From positions 31,535-95,534 of the forward strand of contig CAZFYQ010000004.1 of assembly GCA_964523905.1 (NCBI GenBank): a DNA stretch of 64,000 nucleotides, given 5' to 3'. The notes beneath the pieces were generated by a model, which made no database searches, had not been told where the DNA came from, and worked only from the letters and a program-made list of their open reading frames with translations. The DNA is from an uncultured Gammaproteobacteria bacterium (GTDB lineage: Bacteria; Patescibacteriota; Microgenomatia; Daviesbacterales; UBA10151). Positions 2,669 to 56,000 of this stretch are shown here, piece after piece (positions within the stretch are counted from its first letter, which is position 1; the number at the start of each line of letters is the position of its first letter). The translations under genes and the position numbers were made by a program.

Positions 2669-3158
2669 ATTAAGCGACATTTTAGACAACACTTTGGGGT
2701 TACTCTTGTTGGAAGGATCATATGAAATCGCTGAAGAAGCTGAGGGCTTTTTTGTATCCATTGATACAGCTGATGCTGGCCGTTTAATCGGGGCCAGAGG
2801 AGAATTTTTAGAATCCTTACAACTGTTGGTTAACCAGATGTTATCTCGTCAGATGGGAGAGGGCGCCGAATTTAAAAGAGTGGTCTTAGATGTATCTAAC
2901 TGGAGAAAACAAAAAGAAGAAGAATTAACCCAGCATGCCAAAGAGTGGAGTAATGAAGTCTTAGAATCTGGAAAAGAAATGGAACTTGAACCAATGTCTT
3001 CTTGGCAAAGAAGAATCATTCATATGGTGGTTGGTGAAACAAAAGGTTTGGAAACTGAAAGTACTGGTGAGGGCCGGGACCGACATATCGTGATTAAGCC
3101 TGTTGGCAAAGCTGTAAAATCTAAACCTGAAGACAAAGCTACCAGTGAAGAAGCTTGA
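2658..3158 (+). CDS. jag: Jag/KhpB-like RNA-binding protein (KH + R3H domains)
   Basis: C-terminal R3H-like segment RRIIHMVVGETKGLETESTGEGRDRHIVIKP; downstream of yidC. Confidence 0.8.
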   Translation: MEDKLSDILDNTLGLLLLEGSYEIAEEAEGFFVSIDTADAGRLIGARGEFLESLQLLVNQMLSRQMGEGAEFKRVVLDVSNWRKQKEEELTQHAKEWSNEVLESGKEMELEPMSSWQRRIIHMVVGETKGLETESTGEGRDRHIVIKPVGKAVKSKPEDKATSEEA

Positions 3159-4365
3159 ACAGCTGCTGTTATTTTTAACGATCTTTTTTCTTCCGACTCA
3201 ACTTGGTAAACATTTTTGGCCAAGTTTTTCTTTTATCTATTCTTTACCAATTGATTATCTATCCCCGGTAATTTATTTTTGGGATCTTTTGGCAGTAGTC
3301 TTATTTGTCACATTCTTAATTAACAAAGGTCAGATCAATAAACTGGCGCTTAATTTAGGATTTTTCTTTTTACTAACCCAAAGCGTGTCTTTACTTAGTA
3401 GTACCAATCCGGCAGCTGGGCTGGTTAGGTTGGAGCAATATTTGGTGGTGATATTTTTGGGAATTTATTTGGCATCAATCAAATTAAAGGTTTTTAAAAA
3501 GATTATTATGTGGGGATTAATTCTGGGAATATTAATAGAAGGAGTTTTGGCAGGGATTCAATTTATTACCGGTAGTACTGTCGGGCTTTGGATTTTGGGT
3601 GAAAGAAGTTTTACTATTTCTACTCCAGGAATTGCTAAATTTGATTTTTATAACTTCCACTTTTTAAGGCCCTATGGCACTTTTCCTCATCCCAATGTAT
3701 TAGCGGGGTTTATGATTATTGCCATCCTTATCATTGTCATCCTGAGGCGACTCGCCGAAGGATCTCTTACGAATGTAAGTTACTTTGCGACAGTTTTACT
3801 AGCTGGTCTAACGTTGTTACTGACAGTATCCCGAGTAGCGATAGTAGCTGGTGTTGGTTCAGCGCTCGTCACATTAAATAAAAAAGGCCGGATGTTTCTG
3901 CTTCTTTTGTTGTTGCTGCTTCTGCCGGTTTTGTATACCCGCTTTGCATCGGTGTTTAATTTCGATGTGATATCTTTAATAAGAAGAGAACAACAAATCG
4001 GCATCGCTTTTACTTTATGGACTAAGCACCCTATCTTTGGGGTTGGTTTAAATAATTTTATTATCTCGGCATCTGATCAGTTACTAGCCGGGCCGAGCAG
4101 ATTTCTGCAGCCGGTCCATAATATATTCCTGTTAGAACTAGCAGAAACAGGAGTTATTGGATTCATAGGTTTTATTGTACTAATTGGATATCCATTTCTC
4201 AAAAATTTCAAATTTCAAATTTCAAATTTCAAATTGCTTTGGTTCGTCATCCTCTTCCTGGGAATGTTTGATCATTACTTTTTAACCCTTCCCCAAGGAT
4301 ACCGAATGCTTTTTCTAGTATGGGGAATATCGATTAGTTCTCTTAAAGTAGAGGGAAAAAGCTAA
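3145..4365 (+). CDS. O-antigen ligase family (Wzy_C/WaaL-like) membrane protein
   Basis: About 10-12 TM helices; periplasmic loop with NIFLLELAETGVIGF typical of O-antigen ligases; contains an 8-bp tandem repeat near its 3' end. Confidence 0.7.
   Translation: MKKLEQLLLFLTIFFLPTQLGKHFWPSFSFIYSLPIDYLSPVIYFWDLLAVVLFVTFLINKGQINKLALNLGFFFLLTQSVSLLSSTNPAAGLVRLEQYLVVIFLGIYLASIKLKVFKKIIMWGLILGILIEGVLAGIQFITGSTVGLWILGERSFTISTPGIAKFDFYNFHFLRPYGTFPHPNVLAGFMIIAILIIVILRRLAEGSLTNVSYFATVLLAGLTLLLTVSRVAIVAGVGSALVTLNKKGRMFLLLLLLLLLPVLYTRFASVFNFDVISLIRREQQIGIAFTLWTKHPIFGVGLNNFIISASDQLLAGPSRFLQPVHNIFLLELAETGVIGFIGFIVLIGYPFLKNFKFQISNFKLLWFVILFLGMFDHYFLTLPQGYRMLFLVWGISISSLKVEGKS
3736..3766 (+). repeat. GC-rich hairpin motif gtcatCCTgagGCGActCGCCgaAGGatctc (family copy 1, inside CDS)
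   Basis: Shares 11-nt 5' flank gtcatcctgag and 10-nt 3' flank gaaggatctc with copy at 10345..10371; nested stems ATCCT/AGGAT and GGCGA/TCGCC. Confidence 0.5.
4203..4238 (+). repeat. 8-bp tandem repeat (aaatttca) x4.5 inside O-antigen-ligase-like CDS
   Basis: Read directly: aaatttcaaatttcaaatttcaaatttcaaatt; the unit length is not a multiple of 3. Confidence 0.8.
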
Positions 4366-10242: not shown

Positions 10243-10317
10243 GAATACTATGGGTTTTCTTGGGGCGAATAAAAACCTTTGGCTTGCACGCTCGGCCTGA
10301 ATGTGTTAAATTGACAG

Positions 10318-10343
10318 CTTGAATTATAATTTTTAATTCAAGT
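10318..10343 (+). promoter_or_regulatory. perfect 9-bp inverted repeat cttgaatta-N8-taattcaag enclosing a TATAAT hexamer upstream of rplY
   Basis: Read directly; TATAAT at 10325..10330; candidate operator/promoter. Confidence 0.4.
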
Positions 10344-10344
10344 T

Positions 10345-10371
10345 GTCATCCTGAGCGAAGCGAAGGATCTC
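10345..10371 (+). repeat. GC-rich hairpin motif gtcatCCTgagcgaagcgaAGGatctc (family copy 2); its 3' arm supplies the AAGGA Shine-Dalgarno of rplY
   Basis: Same flanks as 3736..3766; ends 3 nt before the rplY ATG at 10375. Confidence 0.5.
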
Positions 10372-10374
10372 ATT

Positions 10375-11127
10375 ATGGATAGACTTTCATTAAAAGCTGA
10401 GGAACGTAGTGTCCTTGGAAAAAAAGTTAAAAATTTAAGACTTAATGGCCAGCTCCCTGGTCATGTCTATGGCAAAGACGTTAGTGGAGAAAATGTACTG
10501 GTTACATCTTCTGACTTTCATAAAACCTTTAAACAAGCTGGAGAAACCGGATTAATTGATTTAAAAATCGGCGCGGAAAAAGTGCGTCCAGTCCTAATCC
10601 GTGAAGTGCAATATGATGTGATGACTGGCGAGCCAATTCATGTAGATTTTTTCCAGGTTAATTTGAAGGAAAAAGTTAAAGTACCAGTGCCAATTGAACT
10701 AATTGGTGAGGTACCGGAAAAAGTCCATTTGGGAGAAGCTATTGTTTTACAGACCTTAAACGAGGTCGAGGTAGAGGCCTTGCCAACTGACTTAATTGAA
10801 AAATTAGAAGTAGATATTTCCTCACTTAAAGAAATTGATGATGCCATTACCGTGGGACAACTGACATTTGATAGAGAAAAATTAACTGTTTCCGCCGATC
10901 CTGAAGAAGTTGTGGTTAAGCTAGCTCCAGCTGTTTCAGCTGAAACTCAAGAGTTACTAGAAGAACAAGCTGCAGAACAAGCAGCAGCTGCTGCCGAAAC
11001 TGAAGCAGGCGCTGAAAAGGCAGAGGGTGAAGAGGCTGCTGAGGGCGAGGCTGTAGCAGAGGGTGAAGCACCGGCCGAAGGCGAAAAAACTGAAGAAACT
11101 TCATCTGAAGAACCCAAAAAAGAATAA
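10375..11127 (+). CDS. rplY: 50S ribosomal protein L25 / general stress protein Ctc with acidic low-complexity C-terminal tail
   Basis: N-terminal LKAEERSVLGKKVKNLRLNGQLPGHVYGK, IHVDFFQV; the C-terminal 60 aa are an E/A/G-rich tail. Confidence 0.85.
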   Translation: MDRLSLKAEERSVLGKKVKNLRLNGQLPGHVYGKDVSGENVLVTSSDFHKTFKQAGETGLIDLKIGAEKVRPVLIREVQYDVMTGEPIHVDFFQVNLKEKVKVPVPIELIGEVPEKVHLGEAIVLQTLNEVEVEALPTDLIEKLEVDISSLKEIDDAITVGQLTFDREKLTVSADPEEVVVKLAPAVSAETQELLEEQAAEQAAAAAETEAGAEKAEGEEAAEGEAVAEGEAPAEGEKTEETSSEEPKKE

Positions 11128-11187: not shown

Positions 11188-13290
11188 TTACTTTGGCCAG
11201 TTTGCCAGCATAATACTATCTCCAGTATGAGGAAGTTTTTGCCAAAGTTCTTCTGTGATGAATGGCATGAATGGATGCAGTAGTTCCAAACAGGAGCGGA
11301 AAACATATTCTAAAACCGGTTGGGCATCAGCTCGTCTATCCTTAGTAGATTCAATATACTTATCCGCAAACTGATGCCAGATAAATTCATATAATGCATC
11401 CGCGCCATCATGGAATCTATATTGGTTAAGGGATTTGGTAACTTTTTCAGCAGTTTCTTTAAGTTGTTTTAGGATGGCTTGATCTTGCTCATGATTTGAT
11501 GAGGGTATGCTAGTTGGATCTAAGTGTTTTGCATCCTCCGGTGCAAAATCAATGATAAAACGGCCAATATTCCATAGTTTATTAGTAAAATTTCTCATGG
11601 CTTGTAGTTTAGGATGAGATAAAGACTGGTCATTACCAAAGGCTGTGCCATAAACCAAAGCCATCCTAACTGCGTCAGCTCCGTATTGGTCAGCAATTTC
11701 CATCGGGTTAACCACATTGCCCTTACTTTTACTCATTTTTTTACCTAAGGGATCTAAAACAGTTCCATGCAAAACAACGTCTTTAAACGGAATTTTCCCA
11801 GTGGTATAAATTCCTAGCATAATCATTCTGGCCACCCAGAAAAACAAAATATCCCGGCCGGTTTCCATAACTGAAGTGGGGTAAAATTTATCAAAATCGG
11901 ATGGATCATGGCTTGCCCTGAGCGTAGCGAAGGGCCATTGTCCAGAAGAAAACCAGGTATCAAACACATCAGAGTCACGTTCTAAGTTTGTTTCTCCACA
12001 ATTATCACATTGGGTGGGTTCTTCCCCTTCAGTTACAATCCACTGATTACAATTAATACAATTCCAGGCTGGAATCTGCGTCCCCCAAACAATCTGACGA
12101 GATATATTCCAATCCCTAATATTTTCCATCCAATTAAAGAAAGTTTTGGTATACATTGCAGGATAGATTTTTATTTGATCTTTTTTTACTGCCTCCATTG
12201 CTGGTTTAGCTAAGGGTTCAATTTTTATAAACCATTGCTCCAAAGGTAGCGGTTCAATTTCGGTGCCACATTTATAACAAACGCCCACTCGGTTTTTGTA
12301 ATTTTCATCAACTTTTTCAATCATGCCTTTTTCTTTCATTTCCTGGGCCACTGCAATTCTGGCTTCTTTAACTCTCATGCCAGCAAACTTGCCGGTTTTT
12401 TCATTAAGCCTGCCATCATAGCCAATAACTTGTCTTACTTCTAAATTATGTCTTTTGCCGATTTCAAAATCCGTGGCTGAATGAGCAGGAGTAACTTTAA
12501 CCACTCCAGTTCCAAATTCCGGATCAACTGCGCTATCTGCAATTACTTTTATTTTGGCTGGTCCTAAAACGGTTTCAATATCCAGTTCTTTCCCTATATA
12601 TTTTTGGTATCTTTTGTCATCTGGATGAACTGCCACCGCCGTATCACCAAATTTGGTTTCCGGCCTAACTGTAGCTAAAACCAAAGGGCCATATTTGATG
12701 TAATAAAAAGGAGTGGTGCGGTCTTCATAAACTACTTCCAAATCAGAAAAGCTGGTGCCATGTCTGGTGCAGTAATTAACAATCCGCTCAGCGCGATAAA
12801 TTAACCCGTCAGTATGCATTTTCTTAAAAGTTTTATAAACTAGTTTGATAATATCCGGATCCAGGGTAAATTTTTCTCGAGACCAGTCCACGGAAAATCC
12901 CAGTCTTCTAATTTGATCTTCCATAGCGCCTTTATTACTTTGCACAAAATCCCAAATCATCTGGAAAAGAGTGGGCCGATCATAGTCAAAGCGGCTCTTC
13001 TCCTTAGTAGATAGATATTTTTCAAACACCACCTGGGTTTCAAAGCCGGCATGATCAGCGCCGGGCAGCCAAAGAGTACTATCACCCAGCATCCGGTGAT
13101 ATCGGATTAAAATATCCTCCACTGTATACATGGCATGTCCAAAATGAAGCGGAGCATTGGCATTGGGTGGGGGAAGAATAATAGTAAAAGGGGAGCCGTC
13201 AGGATTTATTTCCGGTTTAAAAAATCCGGATTCCTCCCAAAACTGATACCATTTTTTCTCCACCTCTTCTTGGTTATATTGTTTGTCCAT
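11188..13290 (-). CDS. valS: valyl-tRNA synthetase (short form, 700 aa)
   Basis: PPPNANAPLHFGHA (ValRS-type HIGH region), GADHAGFETQ, DVFDTWFSS, KMSKSKGN. Confidence 0.85.
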   Translation of the reverse strand: MDKQYNQEEVEKKWYQFWEESGFFKPEINPDGSPFTIILPPPNANAPLHFGHAMYTVEDILIRYHRMLGDSTLWLPGADHAGFETQVVFEKYLSTKEKSRFDYDRPTLFQMIWDFVQSNKGAMEDQIRRLGFSVDWSREKFTLDPDIIKLVYKTFKKMHTDGLIYRAERIVNYCTRHGTSFSDLEVVYEDRTTPFYYIKYGPLVLATVRPETKFGDTAVAVHPDDKRYQKYIGKELDIETVLGPAKIKVIADSAVDPEFGTGVVKVTPAHSATDFEIGKRHNLEVRQVIGYDGRLNEKTGKFAGMRVKEARIAVAQEMKEKGMIEKVDENYKNRVGVCYKCGTEIEPLPLEQWFIKIEPLAKPAMEAVKKDQIKIYPAMYTKTFFNWMENIRDWNISRQIVWGTQIPAWNCINCNQWIVTEGEEPTQCDNCGETNLERDSDVFDTWFSSGQWPFATLRASHDPSDFDKFYPTSVMETGRDILFFWVARMIMLGIYTTGKIPFKDVVLHGTVLDPLGKKMSKSKGNVVNPMEIADQYGADAVRMALVYGTAFGNDQSLSHPKLQAMRNFTNKLWNIGRFIIDFAPEDAKHLDPTSIPSSNHEQDQAILKQLKETAEKVTKSLNQYRFHDGADALYEFIWHQFADKYIESTKDRRADAQPVLEYVFRSCLELLHPFMPFITEELWQKLPHTGDSIMLANWPK

Positions 13291-22482: not shown

Positions 22483-23742
22483 TTAAGTGCCTTCGTTCCA
22501 GGAAGCTAGGTACTTTTTTTGATCGGCAGTTAAGATATCAATTTTAATGCCTAAGGATTCTAATTTAAGCTGGGCGATCATGTTATCTAGCTCTTTTGGA
22601 ACAGTATAAACCCCTGGTTTTAGTTGGCCTTTCTTTTCAAGTAGGTATTCTGCTGCAAAGGCCTGGTTGGCAAAGCTCATATCCATTACATCCGGTGGAT
22701 GGCCTTCAGCAGAAACTAAATTAATCAGTCTACCCTCTCCTAAGACAAAAACCTTTTTACCTCCGGGTAAAACTAGTTCTTCTAATTGATGTCTAAGCAG
22801 TCTTCTACTTTTGGCAATTTTAACCAGGCCATCATAATCAAATTCCACATTAAAGTGGCCGGTATTAGCCACAATTGCTCCGGGTTTTAGGTTTTTTAAG
22901 TCTGCTAAAGAAATAACAGATTTGTTACCAGTGGCAGTACAAATAATATCAGCCACCTTTACTGCAGAGGCAATTGGCATTACTTCAAATCCATCCATTG
23001 TAGCCTCCAAGGCCCGAACTGCATCTACCTCTGTGACAATTACTTGCGCCCCCATGCCTTTGGCCCGGGCAGACAGTCCCTTACCACACCATCCATAACC
23101 TACCACTACAAATTTCTTGCCGGCCAACAGAACATTAGTGGCCCGGATAATTCCATCAACAGTTGATTGTCCGGTGCCGTATCTATTATCAAACATGTGC
23201 TTAGTATCAGAATCATTAACCGCTACTACTGGGATTTTTAAAGTACCGTCTTTTAACATGGCCCTAAGTCTAATCACTCCGGTGGTAGTTTCTTCAGATG
23301 AACCAATAACCTCTGTTAATTGAGATTTTCTTTCAGTATGCAAAAGAGTTACTAAGTCTGCTCCGTCATCCATAGTAATTTGGGGATGAAAATCCATTAC
23401 CTGATTTAAGTGTTTATAATAGGTATCTTTATCTTCTCCGTGAATGGCAAAAGTAGGGATATCATAGTCAGCCACCAGTGAAGCAGCCACTTCATCCTGA
23501 GTAGACAGCGGATTGGAGGCACAAAGAACCACATTGGCACCACCAGCTTTTAAAGCAATGACTAAGTTGGCGGTTTCAGAGGTAACATGTAAACAAGCAG
23601 CTAAGGTAATTCCTTTAAGTGTCTTTTCTTTTTCAAAGCGTTTTTTAATTAGCTCTAACACTTTCATCTGAGAGCCGGCCCATTCAATTTTTAATTTTCC
23701 GGCTTTGGCCAGTTTTAAATCTTTAACATCACTCTTTATCAT
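22483..23742 (-). CDS. ahcY: adenosylhomocysteinase (SAH hydrolase)
   Basis: 419 aa; NAD-binding VVVGYGWCGKG, HFNVEFD, C-terminal KLKLESLGIKID. Confidence 0.9.
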   Translation of the reverse strand: MIKSDVKDLKLAKAGKLKIEWAGSQMKVLELIKKRFEKEKTLKGITLAACLHVTSETANLVIALKAGGANVVLCASNPLSTQDEVAASLVADYDIPTFAIHGEDKDTYYKHLNQVMDFHPQITMDDGADLVTLLHTERKSQLTEVIGSSEETTTGVIRLRAMLKDGTLKIPVVAVNDSDTKHMFDNRYGTGQSTVDGIIRATNVLLAGKKFVVVGYGWCGKGLSARAKGMGAQVIVTEVDAVRALEATMDGFEVMPIASAVKVADIICTATGNKSVISLADLKNLKPGAIVANTGHFNVEFDYDGLVKIAKSRRLLRHQLEELVLPGGKKVFVLGEGRLINLVSAEGHPPDVMDMSFANQAFAAEYLLEKKGQLKPGVYTVPKELDNMIAQLKLESLGIKIDILTADQKKYLASWNEGT

Positions 23743-31964: not shown

Positions 31965-32834
31965 GTGGAGAATGCTATTTTAAAAACTATTATTTATGCG
32001 GATATTTTTGACTACCCTTTAACTTTATTTGAAATCCATAAATGGCTAATTAAAAAAAAGCTAAACTTAAGACAAGTAGAATCTACTTTAGCTAAATTAG
32101 TGAAAAGTGAAAAATTAAAACTGCACAAAGGATTTTACTTTCTTCCAAGAAGAGAAAAACTGGTTGCTATTAGAAAGAGAAGAGCGTTGCAATCTAGAAA
32201 GTACTTTCAAAAAGTAAAAATCGTTGCTTATCTTCTAAAACTAAACCCTTGGATTAAATTAGTGGGAATATCTGGTGGACTTGCCATGGAAAACGCTGAA
32301 AAAACCGATGACATTGATTTGTTCTTGATAACTGCCAAGAATCGCTTATGGTTAAGCCGGATACTAACTTTGGTGCTACTTTCTTTTACCGGACAAAGAA
32401 GGTCAGTTAATGATTCTAAAAAAAATGCCGCCGGAAAGCTTTGCCCGAATATTTTTATTGAGGAAGATCAGTTATCGCAGGCAAGCAAAGATCTTTATTT
32501 AGCTCACGAAGTTTTACAAATGCATTTACTTTGGCAACGGGATAATATTTATGGAAAATATCTGGAAGATAATGAATGGGCTTTTGAATTTTTACCAAAC
32601 TGGGTTGGTCCCTCTGCGTCACTTAGAGGAGCAAAGCGACGAAGCAATCTAACCAGCAAAGAGATTGCCGCGCCCTCCGGGCTCGCAATGACGACGGAGC
32701 ACTTTGCTAAATGGTTGCAGCTAAAATTAATGAGTAAACCAAAAGGTCTGGAGCGGATTTCTGATAGTGCAGTTTATTTTCACCCGGATGATTACAGGAT
32801 GAAAGTTTTATCGGAGTATAGAAAAAAGAGTTAA
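31965..32834 (+). CDS. nucleotidyltransferase-domain protein (Pol-beta superfamily) carrying an in-frame GC-rich hairpin element
   Basis: GISGGLAMENAEKTDDIDLFLIT (GS..x..DhD NTase motif); residues SLRGAKRRSNLTSKEIAAPSGLAMTTEHF are encoded by the palindromic element at 32644..32692. Confidence 0.45.
   Translation: MENAILKTIIYADIFDYPLTLFEIHKWLIKKKLNLRQVESTLAKLVKSEKLKLHKGFYFLPRREKLVAIRKRRALQSRKYFQKVKIVAYLLKLNPWIKLVGISGGLAMENAEKTDDIDLFLITAKNRLWLSRILTLVLLSFTGQRRSVNDSKKNAAGKLCPNIFIEEDQLSQASKDLYLAHEVLQMHLLWQRDNIYGKYLEDNEWAFEFLPNWVGPSASLRGAKRRSNLTSKEIAAPSGLAMTTEHFAKWLQLKLMSKPKGLERISDSAVYFHPDDYRMKVLSEYRKKS
32661..32692 (-). repeat. GC-rich hairpin motif, minus-strand gtcatTGCgagcccggagggcgcgGCAatctc (family copy 3), with adjacent alternative arm (32644..32668)
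   Basis: Same GTCAT...GAGC...ATCTC flanks as copies at 3736 and 10345; GCAATCT can pair either with ATTGC or with the downstream AGATTGC. Confidence 0.45.
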
Positions 32835-37016: not shown

Positions 37017-37937
37017 GTAATATATGATACCGATAGTCAGGACGGTCCAGACAATAGTGGCGGCAAACAGCGGACGATCTGACAGTAACACCCGCTCTGG
37101 TGACTCGCCCTCTTTTTTCTCATACATAATATAGAGATATCTCATCACCGCATAGATGACGACCGGAATAGTGGCCATTAAGTATTTGGCCTCGGTAAAG
37201 GGAAGGGCAATATGTCCAAAAATAAAAGCTAAGGAATTACGAGCCTCAATAGGAGGTTGTAAAAAAGTAAAGAAAGCATAAGAAAGCCAGGCGGATGTGG
37301 CAAACATGGCGGTTAAACTATCCAGTAAACTTTCCGGATAATGCAGTAAAGTTTCCCGGTGCTGAGAAGCAGTGGCCTCCATTAGGGTCCTTTCTGATCT
37401 TCTTTTACCAACAGCCAGGAAAAGGGCAAATGATGAAACTGACAGTAAAAACCACACATTTAAGTGAGCATTAATCACCCAAACACCCCCGTAAACCCGC
37501 AGCACAAATCCCGCGGCAATCACCATTACATCAAGTAAAATTACTCTTTTTAAATATGCAGAATAAAAAACCTGCATGATTAAATAGGTTAAACAAGCAA
37601 AGAAAAATGCCGGAGCTAAGTTATACGCTACTGGTAGAAAAATTACCACACCAGCCAGGGCTAAGAAAATGGCGACCGGTGCCGGTATTAAGCCGGAGGC
37701 AATAGGACGTTTCTTTTTAAAAGGGTGGAGTTTATCCCTTTCAATATCAAAAACATCATTTAATAAATAAGTACTGGAAGAAAAAATACAAAATAGGGTA
37801 AATGCTTCTAATGCCTTAATTTGGGAAGAACGATCCAATAAATTTCCAGAAAAAATAAGCGCTGCAAAAACTGCAAAGTTTTTTATCCACTGTCTTGGTC
37901 GGGATGATTTAAGAATTGCCCAAAGAAATTTAACCAT
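37005..37937 (-). CDS. UbiA-family prenyltransferase (decaprenyl-phosphate phosphoribosyltransferase-like)
   Basis: YLLNDVFDIERDKLHPFKKKRPIASG (NDxxDxxxD motif), 8-9 TM helices. Confidence 0.75.
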   Translation of the reverse strand: MVKFLWAILKSSRPRQWIKNFAVFAALIFSGNLLDRSSQIKALEAFTLFCIFSSSTYLLNDVFDIERDKLHPFKKKRPIASGLIPAPVAIFLALAGVVIFLPVAYNLAPAFFFACLTYLIMQVFYSAYLKRVILLDVMVIAAGFVLRVYGGVWVINAHLNVWFLLSVSSFALFLAVGKRRSERTLMEATASQHRETLLHYPESLLDSLTAMFATSAWLSYAFFTFLQPPIEARNSLAFIFGHIALPFTEAKYLMATIPVVIYAVMRYLYIMYEKKEGESPERVLLSDRPLFAATIVWTVLTIGIIYYLGA

Positions 37938-43741: not shown

Positions 43742-45910
43742 CTAATCTCCGATTACTTGAAAGGTGGAACCAGTAGAAGTTTTGGAAACTTCAATGCGGG
43801 AAGGGAATTCTTCTTTTAAACTTTCCAAATGGGTAATAATTAAAATCTTTTCAAAGTCTTCCTTAATAGTATCTAATACCTCGACAATTTTGGTTTGTCC
43901 TTCGGCATCCTGAGTTCCAAATCCTTCATCAATTACCAAAAATTGCAATTTGGCTCCGGCACGACGGGTTAATAATTTTGATAGCGCCAAACGGATAGCG
44001 AAATTTACCCTAAATTGTTCACCGCCGGAATAATTTTCATAAGGCCGATCACCCATTTCATCAGAGATAATAATGTCTAAGGTTTCAACCACTGCATGCA
44101 TTTTCCCCTCACTGGTCTCTACTTTTGTTTTAGTTTCCTTCTGGGTATCAAAGCGAACTTTCATCCGACCATTGGTTAACCGCTCCAGTAGTCGGTTGGC
44201 TTCATCTTCTATTTCCGGAATAGCTGTTTCAATAATCATGGCTTGGATGCCTCTTTTACCAAAAGCTAATGCTAGCTCTTCAAACCCGGCTTTTTCTTTT
44301 TCTAAATTATTTTTCTCGAGCTTTTTTTCTTCAAACAATTTTTCTAATTGCTCTGATCTACTAATTAATTCAGTGGCTTGGCCGAGTAGATTTCTGGCCT
44401 CTTTATCTTCCTGTCTTAAACTATTTAGTGCCAGCTCTTTTTGGCTGACCTCTAAACTAATTTTTCTAACATCTTCATCCAGATTAGGTAATTTATTAAC
44501 TTCCAATTCTATTTTTTCAATTTGGGATTTTTTATTGCTAAATAAAGACCGCAATTCCAAGACCACCTTTTTTTCTGATTCTAAAGTAGCTTGGGCGGCG
44601 ATTAATTTTTCTCTTTTTTCCTGTAAGGCAGATAATTCCATAATCTTTTGATTAATTTTTTGGTAGTTGTCATCATTTATTTTTATTGCATCAAACTCGG
44701 CTTCTAACTTTAAAACTACTTGCTGCTCCTCAGTAGTTTTAATTTCTGTTAAAACACTGGTTAACTTTTTTTGCTCTGTTAAATATTCGTTTTTCACTTT
44801 TTCTTTTTGATCTTTGTTTATTTCCTGACCACAAGTTGGGCATTTAGCACTTTCTTTATCTAGTGCTTCAATATGTGATTTTAGCTCTAGCAATTTTTCA
44901 TCCAAAGTCTCCCGGTCTTTATTTTTTAAAGCCAGTGCGGATTTTGCCTGATTTAATTTATTTTCAATTTCCAGCTTTTTTTGAGATAGTAGATTGTAAT
45001 CTTCTTTTTGTTTCTCTAGAATTTTTAATTCTTTTAATTTTTCATTAAAACTTGGAAGCTCTAACAATGCTGTTTCCAAGTTTTTGATTTTTTCAGCTCT
45101 TGATTTTCCTTGGGATAAAATTTCATTTAGTTCTTGTTGCAGAGAATTTAAAGTTTGTTTTAGATTATTTTGCTGCTCACCAGTAGCATTCAAAGTGGCT
45201 TTGGTTTCAGTTAAAGTTTTTAACTCTTTTTCAATCGATGTAATCTTAATATCCAGTTCGGAAATCTTTTGCTCGGCTTGTAATTTTTTGGCCTGGTTGT
45301 TTTCTTTTTGGGAAAGTTCTGCTTCTATTTCCAGGAATTGATATTCCAGCAGTTTTAGTTTGGCAGATAAATCTTTAACTTTATCTTTAGCTTTTTCTTC
45401 CAGTAAATCGTAGTGGGATAAACCTAAAATGTCGGCTAGGATCCGCTTACGGTCACTGGGACCTTTGGTGGTGAATTCATCAGCATGACCCTGACGAAGA
45501 AATGAAGAATTAGTAAATGTCTCAAAACTTAAATGCAAAGTATCAATAATTTTTTGCTGAGTAGCTTTAATAGTTCCTTCGGTTAAATTGTTTTTCTCAG
45601 ACCACAATTCTAAATTAGTGGAGCCTCCGGATTTTAAAGAGCGTTGTCTTTTTACACTAAATTGATGAGCGCCCAATTCAAAACTAAATTCTACAAACAT
45701 TTGCTGAGCTCCCAAATGAACTAATTGATCAGAGGAATCTCCGGCCCGGGAAGTGCCCCATAAACACCAGGTGATTGCATCAAGTAAAGAAGATTTTCCA
45801 GCCCCATTAGTTCCGGAAATTGCAGCCAGATGAAACTTAGTAAAATCCAGCTCCGGTACATTTTCTCCGTATGAAGTAAAGTTAGCCAGTTTTAAACGAA
45901 CGGGGATCAT
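43742..45910 (-). CDS. sbcC: SbcC/Rad50-like exonuclease ATPase subunit
   Basis: N-terminal Walker A AISGTNGAGKSSLLDAI, long coiled coil, zinc hook CPTCGQE, C-terminal Walker B LQFLVIDEGFG. Confidence 0.8.
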   Translation of the reverse strand: MIPVRLKLANFTSYGENVPELDFTKFHLAAISGTNGAGKSSLLDAITWCLWGTSRAGDSSDQLVHLGAQQMFVEFSFELGAHQFSVKRQRSLKSGGSTNLELWSEKNNLTEGTIKATQQKIIDTLHLSFETFTNSSFLRQGHADEFTTKGPSDRKRILADILGLSHYDLLEEKAKDKVKDLSAKLKLLEYQFLEIEAELSQKENNQAKKLQAEQKISELDIKITSIEKELKTLTETKATLNATGEQQNNLKQTLNSLQQELNEILSQGKSRAEKIKNLETALLELPSFNEKLKELKILEKQKEDYNLLSQKKLEIENKLNQAKSALALKNKDRETLDEKLLELKSHIEALDKESAKCPTCGQEINKDQKEKVKNEYLTEQKKLTSVLTEIKTTEEQQVVLKLEAEFDAIKINDDNYQKINQKIMELSALQEKREKLIAAQATLESEKKVVLELRSLFSNKKSQIEKIELEVNKLPNLDEDVRKISLEVSQKELALNSLRQEDKEARNLLGQATELISRSEQLEKLFEEKKLEKNNLEKEKAGFEELALAFGKRGIQAMIIETAIPEIEDEANRLLERLTNGRMKVRFDTQKETKTKVETSEGKMHAVVETLDIIISDEMGDRPYENYSGGEQFRVNFAIRLALSKLLTRRAGAKLQFLVIDEGFGTQDAEGQTKIVEVLDTIKEDFEKILIITHLESLKEEFPSRIEVSKTSTGSTFQVIGD

Positions 45911-47090: not shown

Positions 47091-48242
47091 TCAATTTTCC
47101 AGCAGTTGGGTAGCATATTTTTCCAGTTCTTTTCTTTTTTCTGCAGTGATTTTTTTGGCTTCGAAGTATTTATTTAAGGCCTCAATTGGGGTTAATCTTT
47201 CTACTTCATCAGCTCCTTCTATTTTTAATCTTTCTACCCTTTCAATATTTCTGGAAATGCCGGCAATGTAATGTGCACTGGACAAGGCTTTTTTTATTAA
47301 ATCCATTTTTATTTCTCCATTACAATCAGCAGGAATATTAATAGTTAGTCGAACTACGGTATCTGTAACATCATGCTTTTTAATTTCATCCAAAATTGTT
47401 TGAGTGGGGTCTATATCAGTTGGTTTTAAATTAACTGTCATGGATAAAAATTTCCGGGAGTTAGTGTCAATAAATTTAAAGGTAGTTTTCCCATTTGTAG
47501 GAATATCTACCAGTAAAATTCCCTTAGGTTCTTTTTCTTCACCAAAATCAATCCGATGAGGAGAGCCGGCATATACTACTAAAGGATCAGTTGATAAGAC
47601 TTGATGTTTATGAATATGACCAAGTGCTACATAATCTAATCTTTTATCCTGCAGTAGGGGAAGGGGGATAGTCACATCATTAGCAATGGCCATACCTTTT
47701 TCTGAACCATAACTGGCACCTTCTACTTCACAATGTGACAGAAAAATAGCAGGGGAGTCGGGAGAAATTTTATCATAGAGATTTTTTAATTTATCACCGA
47801 CTGTTTTATATTCATCTTTATGTAACCAGGGCAAAGTAATAATTTGTAAATTACCGGATTTGGTGGAGATGTTTAAAAGTTCTGGTTTGCGGGATACCCA
47901 GACATTATCAATTTCCAAGGCAGAATAAATATCAAGAGTATTGGCTTTACCAGTGGCATTGGGAGTGTCGTGATTGCCCACCACCAAAATAACAGGCATT
48001 TTTTTAGCTAGCTTACTAATTCTTTCACCAAACCCGCGCTGCTGGGTGGGATTAGGATCCCTGGTTTTATATGCATCTCCGGAAAAAATCACAGCATCCA
48101 CATCTTCTTCTATAGCTTTATCCACAATAAAATCAAAGGTTTGAAAAAAATCCAATAATCTGGAGGATAGTCCGGTTTCCGGATCTAATTTCCCGTAATT
48201 TTCCATACCAATATGAATGTCAGAAAAGTGGAGAAGACGCAT
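47091..48242 (-). CDS. sbcD: SbcD/Mre11-like nuclease subunit
   Basis: MRLLHFSDIHIG, VIFSGDAYKTRDP, VILVVGNHD phosphoesterase motifs; start chosen at MRLL rather than the farthest ATG. Confidence 0.8.
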   Translation of the reverse strand: MRLLHFSDIHIGMENYGKLDPETGLSSRLLDFFQTFDFIVDKAIEEDVDAVIFSGDAYKTRDPNPTQQRGFGERISKLAKKMPVILVVGNHDTPNATGKANTLDIYSALEIDNVWVSRKPELLNISTKSGNLQIITLPWLHKDEYKTVGDKLKNLYDKISPDSPAIFLSHCEVEGASYGSEKGMAIANDVTIPLPLLQDKRLDYVALGHIHKHQVLSTDPLVVYAGSPHRIDFGEEKEPKGILLVDIPTNGKTTFKFIDTNSRKFLSMTVNLKPTDIDPTQTILDEIKKHDVTDTVVRLTINIPADCNGEIKMDLIKKALSSAHYIAGISRNIERVERLKIEGADEVERLTPIEALNKYFEAKKITAEKRKELEKYATQLLEN

Positions 48243-48276
48243 GGTAAAAGGGATTTTACCATAACTAAATGTTACA

Positions 48277-49344
48277 ATGTTAGCCATGTTTGCCGAGAGA
48301 ATCACAAGATTAAGACAGCTGTTAATTAAAGAAAAAATAGATGCAGTATTGATTTCAAGTGTTGCAAATATAATTTATCTAACCGGCTATAGTAATTTTT
48401 CTAAAGATGAACGAGAAGCATATTTATTTATCGGTAAAAACTTTGAATATTTAATTACAGATGGAAGGTATACTCAGGCAGTTAAAGAAAAAGTGCCGCA
48501 TTTAACTATTTTTGAAAGGGGCAATGGAAAATCCACTGAAGAGTTATTTAAAAAGCATAAAGAAATTAAAAGTTTAGGAATTGAAGAAGACAATTTAACA
48601 GTTGGTGAATATAAATTTATCAAAAAACATTTCAAAATAATTAAGCATTTTCCAGTAAATCAGCTAAGAGAAATTAAGACTACGGATGAAATTGCCAAAA
48701 TTCAAAAAGCTTGCGAATTAGGAGACCTGGCATTTAAATTTATAGTAGGAGAAATTAAAGTTGGAAAAACAGAAAAGCAAATAGCAGAGGAGTTAGAGGA
48801 ATTTATAAAAAAGCAGGGAGCGCAGTTATCATTTCATACTATAATTGCCTTTGGCGAAAATGCTGCTATCCCACATCACCAAACATCTGATAAACGATTA
48901 ACTATTAACGATAAACTAGTGTTGCTCGATTTCGGCGTGAAGTATCAGGATTATTGTTCAGATATGACCAGAACAATTCTTTTAAAAACAGATCCAAAAT
49001 TACAAAAAATTTATAACACTGTCTTGCAGGCGCAGCAACAAGCAGTTAATTATATTAACGAGCAAATTAAAAACAGTAAAAAAATAATTGCTGAAGAAGT
49101 AGATAAAGCAGCAAGGGAATATATTGCTAATGCCGGATTTCCATCGATCCCTCATTCGCTTGGTCACGGAATCGGTTTAGAAGTGCATGAGCTACCCTAC
49201 ATTTCCGTTAGAAGCAAAGAAGAGCTGCAAGAAGGTATGGTTTTTTCCATTGAACCGGGAATTTATCTGTCTAATTTCGGAGGTATAAGAATAGAAGATT
49301 TATATGTTATAGAAAAAACTGGTTTAAAACAATTAACCGCGTGA
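48277..49344 (+). CDS. Xaa-Pro aminopeptidase (M24B family)
   Basis: HSLGHGIGLEVHE, FSIEPGIY, GGIRIEDLYV. Confidence 0.85.
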   Translation: MLAMFAERITRLRQLLIKEKIDAVLISSVANIIYLTGYSNFSKDEREAYLFIGKNFEYLITDGRYTQAVKEKVPHLTIFERGNGKSTEELFKKHKEIKSLGIEEDNLTVGEYKFIKKHFKIIKHFPVNQLREIKTTDEIAKIQKACELGDLAFKFIVGEIKVGKTEKQIAEELEEFIKKQGAQLSFHTIIAFGENAAIPHHQTSDKRLTINDKLVLLDFGVKYQDYCSDMTRTILLKTDPKLQKIYNTVLQAQQQAVNYINEQIKNSKKIIAEEVDKAAREYIANAGFPSIPHSLGHGIGLEVHELPYISVRSKEELQEGMVFSIEPGIYLSNFGGIRIEDLYVIEKTGLKQLTA

Positions 49345-53418: not shown

Positions 53419-54121
53419 ATATGATGTAAACATCAAGGGCGTGGGATTGCCAGCCTGATGTATGAGCGTCGGGGAAGCCGACATCAATCATATTACCCCT
53501 AACACCACCACCAACATCTCCTGCTACAGCCACACCATATCCTGGAATATACAGTTTAGTGCCTAAAGGGATGACTGATGGATCAACTGCAATTACACCT
53601 TTGCCTTGATGCATGCCTGTTGCAGTCCAGTCATTACAGCCCAGACAATGAGAATCATACTGAGTGGCCCAAACATGGAGCTTTTTCCAGTACTGGATAG
53701 AACCATCTGGAGTATCTAAATCCCGCCAAACAATTTTGGTACCGCGGGAAATTTTTTTATCCTTTGCTTCTGTAGTATCAACTGAAATTACCTCTTTACT
53801 ATAAACTTGTCCATCTTTGGTATAGGTAATTTTGACAGTTTTTATGGTTTTACCATCTTCGCCTTCATCTAATACAGTTTCAGTTCCAGCTTCAGTTTCC
53901 GGGTCATCTTGATAGACTGTTTTTTTCGGTATTACCTCTGTTTCGGTTTCCACCTTTTCTGTAAAAGAAGACTGAGTAGTAATTGGTTGAGTGACTGGTA
54001 AAGTATCCGTTGGGGTTGGAGCATAATCAGCCAAGACCACTGGGGTTTGCCAAAAATATTTGACTAAAAAAGTGACGGCCAAAAGTAAGATAATGCCGAA
54101 ATAGCGTTCCAGCTTATACAT
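53411..54121 (-). CDS. 3D-domain protein with G5-like domain (MltA/YabE-like cell-wall protein)
   Basis: WATQYDSHCLGCNDWTATGMHQGKGVIAVDPSVIPLGTKLYIPGYGVAVAGDVGGGVRGNMIDV (3D domain), upstream G5-like KITYTKDGQVYSKEVIS. Confidence 0.65.
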   Translation of the reverse strand: MYKLERYFGIILLLAVTFLVKYFWQTPVVLADYAPTPTDTLPVTQPITTQSSFTEKVETETEVIPKKTVYQDDPETEAGTETVLDEGEDGKTIKTVKITYTKDGQVYSKEVISVDTTEAKDKKISRGTKIVWRDLDTPDGSIQYWKKLHVWATQYDSHCLGCNDWTATGMHQGKGVIAVDPSVIPLGTKLYIPGYGVAVAGDVGGGVRGNMIDVGFPDAHTSGWQSHALDVYIISN

Positions 54122-56000
54122 TTAACCAATCCTCCTTATCAATTATCTCAACATCTTCCAGCAAACTATCCTGATCTCGGAAATTGGTGTTGCCATCAAT
54201 TAAAGTTTCCGGAATATCAGCTAAAAACCGTGAGACTAGATTATTTGATCTGCTACCAAAAAAAAGCCGTGTTCTGGTATAGGTTAAATATAACTTTTCT
54301 TTAGCCCTGGTAATTCCCACATAACAAAGTCGTCTTTCTTCTTCCAGTTCATTAGGATCCAGCATTGAGCGTGAGTGAGGAAACAGTCCTTCCTCCATGC
54401 CTGACATAAATACTACAGGAAATTCCAGGCCTTTAGCGCTATGCAAAGTCATTAATGTTACTGCATCCTGGTCGAGTTTCTTCCGCCCAGGAGCATCTGC
54501 TGCCTCTACCAAAGCGACATTTTCCAAAAATTCAGTTAATTTCGGAAATTCCTCTGCCACCGAGCGCAGTTCTTTAACATTTTCCATACGATTAATACCC
54601 TCTTCTGTTTTATCATCCAAATATTCCATATACCCGGTTTTTTCTACCACCAAATCCATTAGCTCTAAACTGGTGTATTGATCCAGCTTACCGGCTACTT
54701 CAATATAAATATCCATTACGGCTTTTAGCCGAGCTTTACCGATTTTTTCCGCTCTTTTTAAAGCTACGGAATCCTCCGGATTTTGTAGCAGCCGTAAATA
54801 GCACAGTACATCTTTAATTTCTTTTCTTTGGTAAAACGAAGTGCCGTCCACTAATTTATAAGGCACGCCACTTTTTAAAAATTGTTCTTCCAAAGAGCGA
54901 GACTGGGCATTGGTGCGGTATAAAATAGCGTAATCGGAAAGTCGGGTTTGATCAAGCTGAGACAAGATAAAAATGGCTTCTTCTACCTCGTTTCTGGTTT
55001 CTACTGCCTGAATTTTTGCTCCGGCATCCTTATCAGTCCATAATTTTAAAACCGGATGGGATTTATTTTTGGAAATCACCCCATGAGCCGCATCTAAAAT
55101 TGTTTGAGTGGAGCGGTAATTTTGTTCTAGGCTAAAAACTTTAGTGCTGGGGTAATCTTTTTGAAAATTTAACATATTACGATAATCAGCGCCCCGGAAT
55201 TTATAAATTGACTGCGACATATCTCCCACCACACAAATATTTTGATGGCGTTTGGCTAGATATTTAGAAATTAAATATTGGGCAGGATTAGTATCCTGGT
55301 ATTCATCAATTAAGATATAGCGGAATTGAATTTGATATCTGGTTAAAGTTTGGGGGCTAACTTGAAATAACTTAATGGTTTTTAAAAGCAAATCATCAAA
55401 ATCAACCGCCTTATTTTTTTCCAGGATTTTTTGATATTCCAGGTATATTTTTGCCACAGTTTCCTGAAAATAGCCCCGGGCATATTGCGGATATTCCATA
55501 GCGGAAATCAGTTCATTTTTGGCACCGGAAATAGTGGTTCTAACAGAATGAGGAGAAGTTTTTTGAATCGGAATATTTAAATTATTCATCGCTTCTTTGA
55601 TCACATCCATGGCGTCACCCTCATCGTAAATCGCAAATCCCGGAGGCAAGCCGATTTCTCCGCCATCCTTTCGAAGGACTTTTGCGCAAAAACTATGGAA
55701 AGTTCCCATTAGTGGTAGTTGGTAGTTAGTAGTAGGTAGTTCGGAGTTAAGTAACTTGAGAATACGGTTTCTCATTTCTCCGGCGGCTTTGTTAGTAAAC
55801 GTCACCATCAGGATATTTTCTGCGGGAATTTGCTTTTCTTTGATCAGATAAGCTACCCGGTAAGTTAAGACGCGAGTTTTTCCAGAACCAGCTCCAGCCA
55901 GGATCAAAATTGGTCCATCTGTGGCCTTAACCGCCTCTTGTTGAGCGGGATTTAAATCGTCCAAGAGACTTGTACTGAGCGTACTCGAAGTAGCAGACAT
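54114..56000 (-). CDS. uvrD: UvrD/PcrA-family ATP-dependent DNA helicase
   Basis: Walker A AGAGSGKTRVLTYR, IDEYQDTN, GTFHSFC, TLHSAKGLEF, 628 aa. Confidence 0.85.
   Translation of the reverse strand: MSATSSTLSTSLLDDLNPAQQEAVKATDGPILILAGAGSGKTRVLTYRVAYLIKEKQIPAENILMVTFTNKAAGEMRNRILKLLNSELPTTNYQLPLMGTFHSFCAKVLRKDGGEIGLPPGFAIYDEGDAMDVIKEAMNNLNIPIQKTSPHSVRTTISGAKNELISAMEYPQYARGYFQETVAKIYLEYQKILEKNKAVDFDDLLLKTIKLFQVSPQTLTRYQIQFRYILIDEYQDTNPAQYLISKYLAKRHQNICVVGDMSQSIYKFRGADYRNMLNFQKDYPSTKVFSLEQNYRSTQTILDAAHGVISKNKSHPVLKLWTDKDAGAKIQAVETRNEVEEAIFILSQLDQTRLSDYAILYRTNAQSRSLEEQFLKSGVPYKLVDGTSFYQRKEIKDVLCYLRLLQNPEDSVALKRAEKIGKARLKAVMDIYIEVAGKLDQYTSLELMDLVVEKTGYMEYLDDKTEEGINRMENVKELRSVAEEFPKLTEFLENVALVEAADAPGRKKLDQDAVTLMTLHSAKGLEFPVVFMSGMEEGLFPHSRSMLDPNELEEERRLCYVGITRAKEKLYLTYTRTRLFFGSRSNNLVSRFLADIPETLIDGNTNFRDQDSLLEDVEIIDKEDWLNV

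Follow-up and report, generated by a model that had tools for sequence, protein, structure and literature searches.

Tagged GC-rich hairpins in genes of a Daviesbacterales bacterium are probably a new family of REP-class palindromic DNA elements

What are the short GC-rich hairpins that recur, inside genes and between them, in the DNA of an uncultured bacterium of the Patescibacteriota (order Daviesbacterales)? The stretch analysed here, called the window, is 64,000 nucleotides long (GenBank assembly GCA_964523905.1, contig CAZFYQ010000004.1, positions 31,535 to 95,534). A sequence-only reading of it had picked out three hairpins bracketed by the same flanks, and had likened them to elements of the repetitive extragenic palindrome (REP) type or the MITE type (miniature transposable elements with inverted repeats). 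Our results indicate that the hairpins are probably non-autonomous REP-class palindromic DNA elements, which constitute a new family in the CGTC/TGTC-tagged REP superfamily. What is new here is the family; the kind of element is already known. The hairpins are most likely selfish DNA, tolerated in frame in permissive loops like the Rickettsia palindromic elements (RPE).

The three hairpin sequences were confirmed with their positions and strands (copies 1 to 3 in Table 1). Their common flanks, expressed as the pattern GTCATNNNGAG-N6-24-NNNATCTC, matched exactly these three loci in the window, against 0.01 matches expected by chance from 100 shuffles. The covariance model gave 33.2 bits for copy 1 (E = 3.5e-7), 51.2 bits for copy 2 (E = 2.4e-12) and 14.7 bits for copy 3 (E = 0.07). 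A fourth, decayed copy, absent from the earlier list, is separated from copy 3 by 9 nt; the pair makes up an inverted doublet (32617-32693) whose tags point outward. No other credible copy emerged when the covariance model was run with filters off over all of the window; weak matches at 37131, 59762, 17670 and 60014 were stemless and were discarded as chance. The window holds four copies and one core, described below, in 64 kb, and about 20 credible copies were found in 128 kb of related Daviesbacteria loci. A general repeat finder did not recover the family in its run, because the units are short and their apices differ.

Table 1. Hairpins in the window, numbered from its first nucleotide.
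Feature	Position	Strand	Description
Copy 1, singlet	3735-3766	+	tGTC tag, stem ATCCT/AGGAT, GA/GA, apex GGCG-ACT-CGCC, CTC tail
Copy 2, singlet, canonical short form	10344-10371	+	TGTCATCCTGA-GCGAAGC-GAAGGATCTC; rplY 5' leader
Copy 3, right half of inverted doublet	32661-32693	-	cGTC tag, stem ATTGC/GCAAT, apex GCCC-GGA-GGGC, CTC tail
Copy 4, decayed, left half of doublet	32617-32651	+	cGTCACTTAGAGGAGCAAAGCGACGAAGCAATCTA; peptide SLRGAKRRSNL
Core-only hairpin GCCCTGAGCGTAGCGAAGGGC	11915-11935	+ (valS on - strand)	no tag, no tail
AT-rich 15-bp hairpin	10312-10348	+	TGACAGCTTGAATTA/TAATTCAAGTTGTCA; abuts copy 2, 3' arm overlaps TGTCA tag

Two of the original three copies had been placed in frame inside coding sequences, and both are indeed in frame. 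Copy 1 encodes the peptide VILRRLAEGSL within the open reading frame (ORF) 3145-4365, which is the Wzy_C/O-antigen-ligase gene that had been named as its host, and copy 3 encodes EIAAPSGLAMT within ORF 31965-32834. The nucleotidyltransferase-domain label given to the latter ORF could not be kept, Pfam giving only a sub-threshold match to DUF5457. Copy 2 is intergenic and supplies the AAGGA Shine-Dalgarno sequence of rplY, as had been claimed: it occupies 10363-10367 in the 3' arm, 7 nt before the ATG at 10375. Two weaker relatives had also been suggested. The one at 11907-11935 contains, within 11915-11935, the exact 17-nt core, which lies in valS, is not an insertion and has neither tag nor tail; the one at 511-526 is just the 3' half of a unit (GAAGGATCTC; 511-520), unreported by the covariance model and so without support as a copy. 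The sequence at 505-521, GGCCTGAAGGATCTCC, resembles a unit with its apex deleted (CCTGA/AGGATCTC) without the GTCAT side, and may be a remnant, one without statistical support.

From 5' to 3', a unit consists of the YGTC tag, which is unpaired, a stem opening with AT and continuing with three variable pairs, a tandem GA facing GA, the apical hairpin, the second strand of the stem and a CTC tail, likewise unpaired. There are five Watson-Crick pairs, then tandem GA/AG, then an apical stem of 2-4 bp with a 3-nt GNA loop, and folding as DNA and as RNA gives this structure for copies 1-3. The four window copies carry the tags TGTC, TGTC, CGTC and CGTC, and all four start the stem with AT...AT. The tag and the tail are also seen in other genomes: of 244 copies compared, 152 have T and 72 have C before GTCAT (224 with one or the other), and the bases that follow ATC are T (201 copies) and then C (203), which gives the tail CTC; the following base is weakly conserved.

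The sequence-only reading had regarded the two kinds of arm, CCT/AGG and TGC/GCA, as compensatory. This is upheld by a scan of one genome per species with a pattern in which the stem triplets were half-free and the terminal AT was fixed. The scan yielded at least 120 stretches, and among the matches listed (159) the triplets were complementary in 153, where chance would give one in eight. Six kinds occurred among these: TGC/GCA (48), CCT/AGG (47), TCT/AGA (27), TCC/GGA (18), CCC/GGG (12) and CGC/GCG (1). The apical pairs, which played no part in selecting the sequences, covary as well. In an alignment of 56 short forms G-C is replaced by A-U in six sequences and C-G by U-A in two, and 97.7% of the cells pair, a share that falls to 13-49% if the partners are slid. 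Besides singlets there are inverted doublets with the tags outward: within 200 nt, forward-then-reverse pairs, with spacers mostly of 0-60 nt, numbered 56 and reverse-then-forward pairs 8.

The apex is GCGNAGC or GCGNNAGC in 213 of 510 copies elsewhere (about 40%), with all four bases found at N. In the window this mini-hairpin is present in copy 2 (GCGAAGC) and in the valS hairpin (GCGTAGC), while copies 1 and 3 have other apices. As DNA this motif does not melt until near 80 C, and the corresponding RNA has much lower stability (PMC13037366). Standard nearest-neighbour parameters miss this DNA stability, which explains the unimpressive z-scores that the short forms receive in folding. Mini-hairpin DNA was previously described (Hirao et al.; PMC13037366) as a structural building block of phage G4 origins, ssiA and N4 promoters and not as a repeat family, whereas here it is embedded in a tagged palindrome.

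Matches of the species scan fell in at least 12 phyla. The hosts among the matches listed include Chloroflexota, Acidobacteriota, Bacteroidota, Patescibacteria, Nitrospirota, Planctomycetota, Verrucomicrobiota, Omnitrophota, Bacillota, several proteobacterial classes, Bdellovibrionota and Latescibacterota. The CCT/AGG form was also found in 107 stretches of IMG/VR viral contigs; cultured phage records gave zero copies. The hairpins had been described as GC islands in an AT-rich genome (the window has 38% GC), but the family is not limited to such genomes, since the viral carrier contigs have a median GC of 59%. Plasmid copies are present in cultured cyanobacteria, Bacteroidota and Acidobacteriota (Planktothrix, Gloeothece, Nostoc, Hymenobacter, Granulicella and Phocaeicola), some of them within restriction-modification and BREX genes. 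On the Planktothrix agardhii plasmids NZ_LR882964.1 and NZ_LR882951.1, copies are located in a restriction-modification gene of MmeI type and in a gene for a BREX PglX methyltransferase. Reading frame and strand of the element vary from gene to gene, and it occurs between genes as well. At the end of one viral contig (IMGVR_UViG_3300028167_000210, locus L051, 8560-8980) there are five tandem heterodimers with a period of 87 nt, each made of a CCT-type forward and a TCT-type reverse unit. A CRISPR-like array was considered for this locus and ruled out; it is a REP cluster resembling the bacterial interspersed mosaic elements (BIMEs). We also considered that the two doublets of another locus (L153) flank a mobile gene, and rejected this, the genes between them being O-antigen-ligase-like and glycosyltransferase genes.

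The assignment to the REP class rests on the combination of tag, AT stem, 3-nt tail, inverted doublets and in-frame intragenic copies, which matches the published superfamily and bears out the earlier suggestion of REP- or MITE-like elements under structural selection. The CGTC REPs described by Di Nocera, De Gregorio and Rocco in 2013 (PMC3733652) have a terminal CGTC (often TGTC, with CCTC as a further variant), stems that are almost always AT-initiated and a 3-nt tail; one type of inverted dimer predominates, copies occur within genes, and no transposase is associated with them. Of known systems this superfamily, CGTC-2 especially, comes closest: the window family shares with it the CGTC/TGTC tag, the A-T stem start, the 3-nt tail, the tags-outward dimers, the in-frame intragenic copies, the lack of a known dedicated transposase and the presence of members in several phyla. 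The published dimer peptides show the same forward-then-reverse order as the window doublet, and fully paired relatives such as GTCATCCTGAACTTGTTTCAGGATCTC match the Sulfurovum CGTC-2 peptide RHSELVSGS. The described families CGTC-1 to CGTC-4, on the other hand, have a continuous stem of 8-9 bp, a 4-5 nt loop and a CCA tail, none of which is found in the window family. Its units have instead the tandem GA/AG interruption, a 2-bp GNA mini-hairpin or a variable inserted hairpin, and the CTC tail. Because of the interrupted stem, the GNA apex and the CTC tail we file the element as a new family and not under CGTC-1 to CGTC-4. The breadth also differs: the 2013 study reported CGTC repeats in five phyla and did not cover Patescibacteria, whereas the window family was found in at least 12 phyla and in viral contigs. 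The window-family peptides VILSEAKDL, RSFASLRMT, SLRGAKRRSNL and ..LAMT are missing from the list of intragenic REPs in that paper (PMC3733652), which does include CGTC-1 peptides (VIPAKAGI, WIPAFAGMT, SFLRKQESI) that we found in orthologues of both window proteins. Full-text literature searches with the element sequence, its halves and its peptides returned nothing relevant.

It is useful to compare the family with other repeats. In the 2013 survey RPE-6 and RPE-4 were equated with CGTC-1 and CGTC-4, and the Neisseria repeat dRS3 with CGTC-1 (PMC3733652). The GTAG REPs, which form REP doublets (REPINs) moved by REP-associated tyrosine transposases (RAYTs), share with the window family the unpaired tag 5' of a short hairpin, the inverted doublet as the likely replicative unit and BIME-like clusters (L051). 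They differ in the tag, which is GTAG/GTGG there and YGTC here and in the 224 copies elsewhere mentioned above, and they are species-specific, whereas the core of the window family is conserved across phyla. No RAYT turned up in the window or beside any copy in the loci searched. The RPE, which Ogata et al. are said to have reported in 2000 in frame in protein genes, behave most like the window family, being in-frame palindromic repeats of a small, AT-rich, gene-dense genome that surface loops tolerate. The R. conorii CGTC-1 peptides SFLRKQESI and WIPAFAGMT even recur in orthologues of the two window proteins. The classic RPE-1 is 100-150 bp long and belongs to another sequence family, against 27-35 nt for the window units, and the host is an alphaproteobacterium there and a bacterium of the Candidate Phyla Radiation here. 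Neisseria dRS3, which occurs both dispersed and in clusters, likewise belongs to this superfamily and is a short palindrome starting with AT, but its stem is ATTCCC-N8-GGGAAT. Phage and IS110-type elements are known to integrate at dRS3; for the window family nothing of this kind was seen.

Are the hairpins insertions? Comparison with orthologues, which had been proposed as an insertion test, gave a positive answer at all three loci. For each of the two host proteins (Wzy and the product of ORF 31965-32834) we compared 120 orthologues, and in both families the site of the element is a hypervariable loop, which is empty, or filled by the same family, or filled by the CGTC-1 peptides WIPAFAGMT/SFLRKQESI. 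In the orthologues of ORF 31965-32834 the loop has 20-56 residues, and it ends in ..LAMT, the ending of the same family, in 28 of the 120, in ..AGMT (CGTC-1 WIPAFAGMT) in 10 and in ..LGMT in 6; in the remaining ones the loop sequence is unrelated and often AT-rich and of low complexity. The Wzy loop has 18-47 residues and is minimal in many orthologues, while 29 of the 120 carry REP-type peptides, including VILS.TKD...LRMT doublets and SFLRKQESI. At the nucleotide level, a CGTC-1-type unit was found at the Wzy site of the relative L228 and none in L229 and L230. L229 has no element before rplY, and the flanks align. A complete doublet stands in the murB spacer of L232, where the window has none, and L234 carries a doublet within murB.

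Other observations were made at these and similar sites. The AdoHcyase/PfkB spacer contains a heterodimer in L231 (2190-2266), L233 (1604-1704) and L234 (3823-3901); the window, where the two genes overlap (23739-23742), has no element there. In the loops that hold the copies, many orthologues of Wzy and of ORF 31965-32834 (P0030, P0033, P0042, P0046 and others) contain AT-rich, low-complexity and apparently palindromic peptides, such as QNSKFKIQNYNSKFKI, IINHKS and LRIKNKEL. These AT-rich loop peptides may represent a second, AT-rich hairpin family at the same permissive sites.

The fate of an inserted copy can be followed in the doublet of copies 3 and 4, which is orthologous in four relatives (L231-L234). 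The orthologous forward copies are intact, with the sequence GTCATTGCGAGGAG(C/T)GAA(G/A)CGACGAAGCAATCT(A/G), and show the compensatory apical change GCGAAGC to GTGAAAC, which includes a non-synonymous Ala to Val replacement. The orthologous reverse copies retain a hairpin in differing sequences (CCCGAAGGG, CCCGGAGGG and TCCGCCAAAGGCGGA). Four substitutions set copy 4 apart from its orthologues; every one is synonymous (P about 0.008), and three break the outer stem. Pairing is thus kept or renewed in most lineages, and where the hairpin decays the peptide is conserved. This speaks against any need of the host for the hairpin there.

How might such an element spread and persist? We infer that the hairpin would extrude in single-stranded DNA at replication or transcription, and that hairpin and unpaired tag together would be recognised and cleaved by an enzyme acting in trans on single-stranded DNA, on the model of RAYT/TnpA(REP) with its GTAG tag and hairpin. 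Pairing would be maintained because only pairing copies propagate. In a gene-dense genome of about 38% GC, the survivors would be those that land in frame and stop-free in permissive loops, or in a leader; here the permissive sites would be an inter-helix loop of Wzy, a linker of the DUF5457-like protein and the rplY leader. Surviving copies would be translated as short linker peptides or carried in the mRNA. After fixation in a gene the peptide may gain constraint at the protein level while the hairpin decays, as copy 4 seems to have done. On its minus strand (43742-45910 and 47091-48305) the window encodes an ATPase like SbcC and a calcineurin-like phosphoesterase that is possibly SbcD, and with these genes a hairpin-cleaving nuclease may therefore coexist with the palindromic doublets.

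It must be noted that several results weigh against this interpretation. Among the approximately 68 ORFs of the window there is no Y1_Tnp/HUH or other transposase, and clustering of the ORFs from 227 copy-bearing loci revealed no transposase, RAYT included, that was enriched near the copies; the clusters were common superfamilies (terminases, kinases, short-chain dehydrogenases, ABC-F proteins and hydrolases). These negatives agree with the 2013 conclusion that CGTC REPs lack a dedicated transposase (PMC3733652). BLAST of the flanks across all loci recovered no clean pair of filled and empty sites at high nucleotide identity, only two imprecise cases. Regarding the MITE alternative within the earlier suggestion, no parent insertion sequence was seen, nor was such a pair recovered. 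The copy density in the window is low (4 to 5 per 64 kb), and the core is near-identical across phyla, which is unusual for REPs, normally species-specific. Covariation among subfamilies demonstrates a requirement for pairing, and not its cause. Finally, the presence of the same core in the conserved, uninserted valS of several relatives is unexplained by simple insertion.

This last point deserves a closer description. The valS hairpin contains the exact 17-nt core CCTGAGCGTAGCGAAGG (19.4 bits in the covariance model, E = 0.003; 0.00 expected), with G-C pairs replacing the A-T pairs. The core encodes WPFATLRA, and WPFATL or a close variant is present in nearly all of 120 ValRS orthologues. 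Nothing of the size of an element has been inserted: compared with its L229 orthologue, the window protein has one extra residue here. The DNA of the hairpin is identical in L236, has one synonymous change in L235, is diverged in L238 and is absent from L229, which uses AT-rich codons. The core uses GC-rich codons atypical of this genome. The L237 hairpin has a perfect palindrome of 15 nt nested in it, with the 6-nt direct repeat CTCAGG on its flanks, exactly at the place of the variable inner hairpin in long-form elements. Nesting of small palindromes at CCTGAG is one possibility that this hints at, and conversion with genomic copies is the other.

From such data one could argue that the hairpins arose locally, by template switching or gene conversion at quasi-palindromes with hairpins nesting at CCTGAG, so that a mutational process and the stability of GCGNAGC would be enough. 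The valS core, sitting with its atypical codons in conserved, uninserted coding sequence, favours this, as do the L237 palindrome with its CTCAGG repeat at the long-form inner-hairpin position and the fact that orthologous copies vary in the inner hairpin and not in the frame. But local mutation does not predict an unpaired tag and tail conserved across phyla, whole doublets are present or absent at orthologous spacers and tandem heterodimer clusters exist, and we consider a purely local origin unlikely. Another proposal is that one conserved single-strand DNA mini-hairpin element, common to at least 12 phyla, phages and plasmids, spreads without a RAYT-type transposase, either because some universal activity of replication or repair recognises the GCGNAGC hairpin with its YGTC tag, or by palindrome nesting at CCTGAG (in L237 valS a 21-nt insertion with a 6-nt direct repeat). 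The same process would rewrite conserved coding sequence and account for the valS core. We regard this as rather unlikely. Could the sequences be kept for their peptides (SLRGAKRRSNL, ..LAMT, VILS.AKDL), as a short protein module with incidental palindromy? The synonymous nature of all four substitutions in copy 4 and the retention of the doublet peptide in 28 of 120 orthologues speak for it. Yet the DNA is read in different frames and on both strands, also stands between genes, and is missing altogether from many orthologues; the stem triplets covary though the residues change, and the compensatory GCGAAGC to GTGAAAC replaces Ala by Val. This makes a peptide module very unlikely. Chance resemblance of the three loci, for which the small copy number in the window is the only argument, can practically be dismissed in view of three matches against 0.01 expected, covariance-model E values down to 2.4e-12 and the same motif with covarying stems in hundreds of loci elsewhere.

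An explanation at the level of RNA would concern copy 2 in particular. Its neighbour in the rplY leader is an AT-rich hairpin, and L229 lacks both, about 55 nt in all, between the shared upstream sequence and the rplY ATG. The combined leader is predicted to fold strongly (z = -4.4 as DNA and -4.7 as RNA; -27 kcal/mol), and in this fold the 3' arm of copy 2 sequesters the rplY Shine-Dalgarno sequence, which could affect rplY translation. Since a relative lacks the element, we regard this sequestration as most likely a side effect and not the reason for the element. A promoter before rplY, seen by eye, was not confirmed by a scan, which found neither a terminator nor a promoter pattern at copy 2. 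No T-run of the kind that marks an intrinsic terminator follows the hairpins (the copies are followed by CTCTTAC, CTCATTATG and CTCTTTGC).

The corresponding alternative is that the hairpins are RNA cis elements of benefit to the host (mRNA stabilisers, RNase processing sites or a translational operator), with copy 2 regulating rplY by Shine-Dalgarno sequestration, perhaps by imitating the loop E of 5S rRNA to which L25 binds. It can point to the AAGGA held in the 3' arm 7 nt before the ATG, to the strongly folded leader shared with the AT-rich hairpin, to the tandem G.A pairs, which we take to resemble loop-E-type motifs, and to the published argument that many REPs are transcribed and act after transcription. 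An L25 operator was nevertheless rejected as the principal explanation of copy 2, the same hairpin being present in coding sequences and missing from a relative. More generally, the hairpin lies within unrelated coding sequences in either orientation to the gene, the rplY of L229 does without it, the apical motif is far stabler as DNA than as RNA, and in copy 4 the stem was lost synonymously while the peptide was kept. No Rfam family matched at gathering score at the loci, and raising E up to 10 gave chance miRNA-type matches only. With no Rfam match, no T-run and either orientation to the host gene, the hairpins are not a host RNA family, and we find a beneficial RNA element improbable. The DNA-level interpretation, a tagged REP family, is the one we prefer.

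Some further features of the window may be mentioned. Its closest protein relatives place it in Candidatus Daviesbacteria (Microgenomates, Candidate Phyla Radiation). It begins beside a replication-origin gene cluster, the GC skew is positive over most of its length and the cumulative skew climbs. No tRNA or tmRNA genes were found in it. Rfam RF03531 (n00280, a Clostridioides difficile sRNA within a helicase gene) was reported at 54271-54365 on the minus strand with 65.3 bits against a gathering score of 65.2; the match is probably conserved helicase coding sequence, because it lies inside the UvrD/PcrA-like ORF 54114-56000. A free-standing ORF for a '23S rRNA-intervening sequence protein' (PF05635; 22050-22427, minus strand) adjoins the AdoHcyase gene.

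If the hairpins are REP elements, as we think probable, the family accounts for odd GC-rich islands and for recurrent peptides (..LAMT, ..LRMT, SLRGAKRRSNL, VILSEAKDL) in protein predictions from the Candidate Phyla Radiation and other metagenomes, where such peptides can be mistaken for conserved protein motifs or RNA elements. It also extends the tagged REPs to the Patescibacteria with their tiny genomes, in which they behave like Rickettsia palindromic elements. For finding what moves the CGTC-type REPs, a question that dates from 2013, the near-invariant core in cultured cyanobacteria, Bacteroidota and Acidobacteriota offers a tractable substrate.

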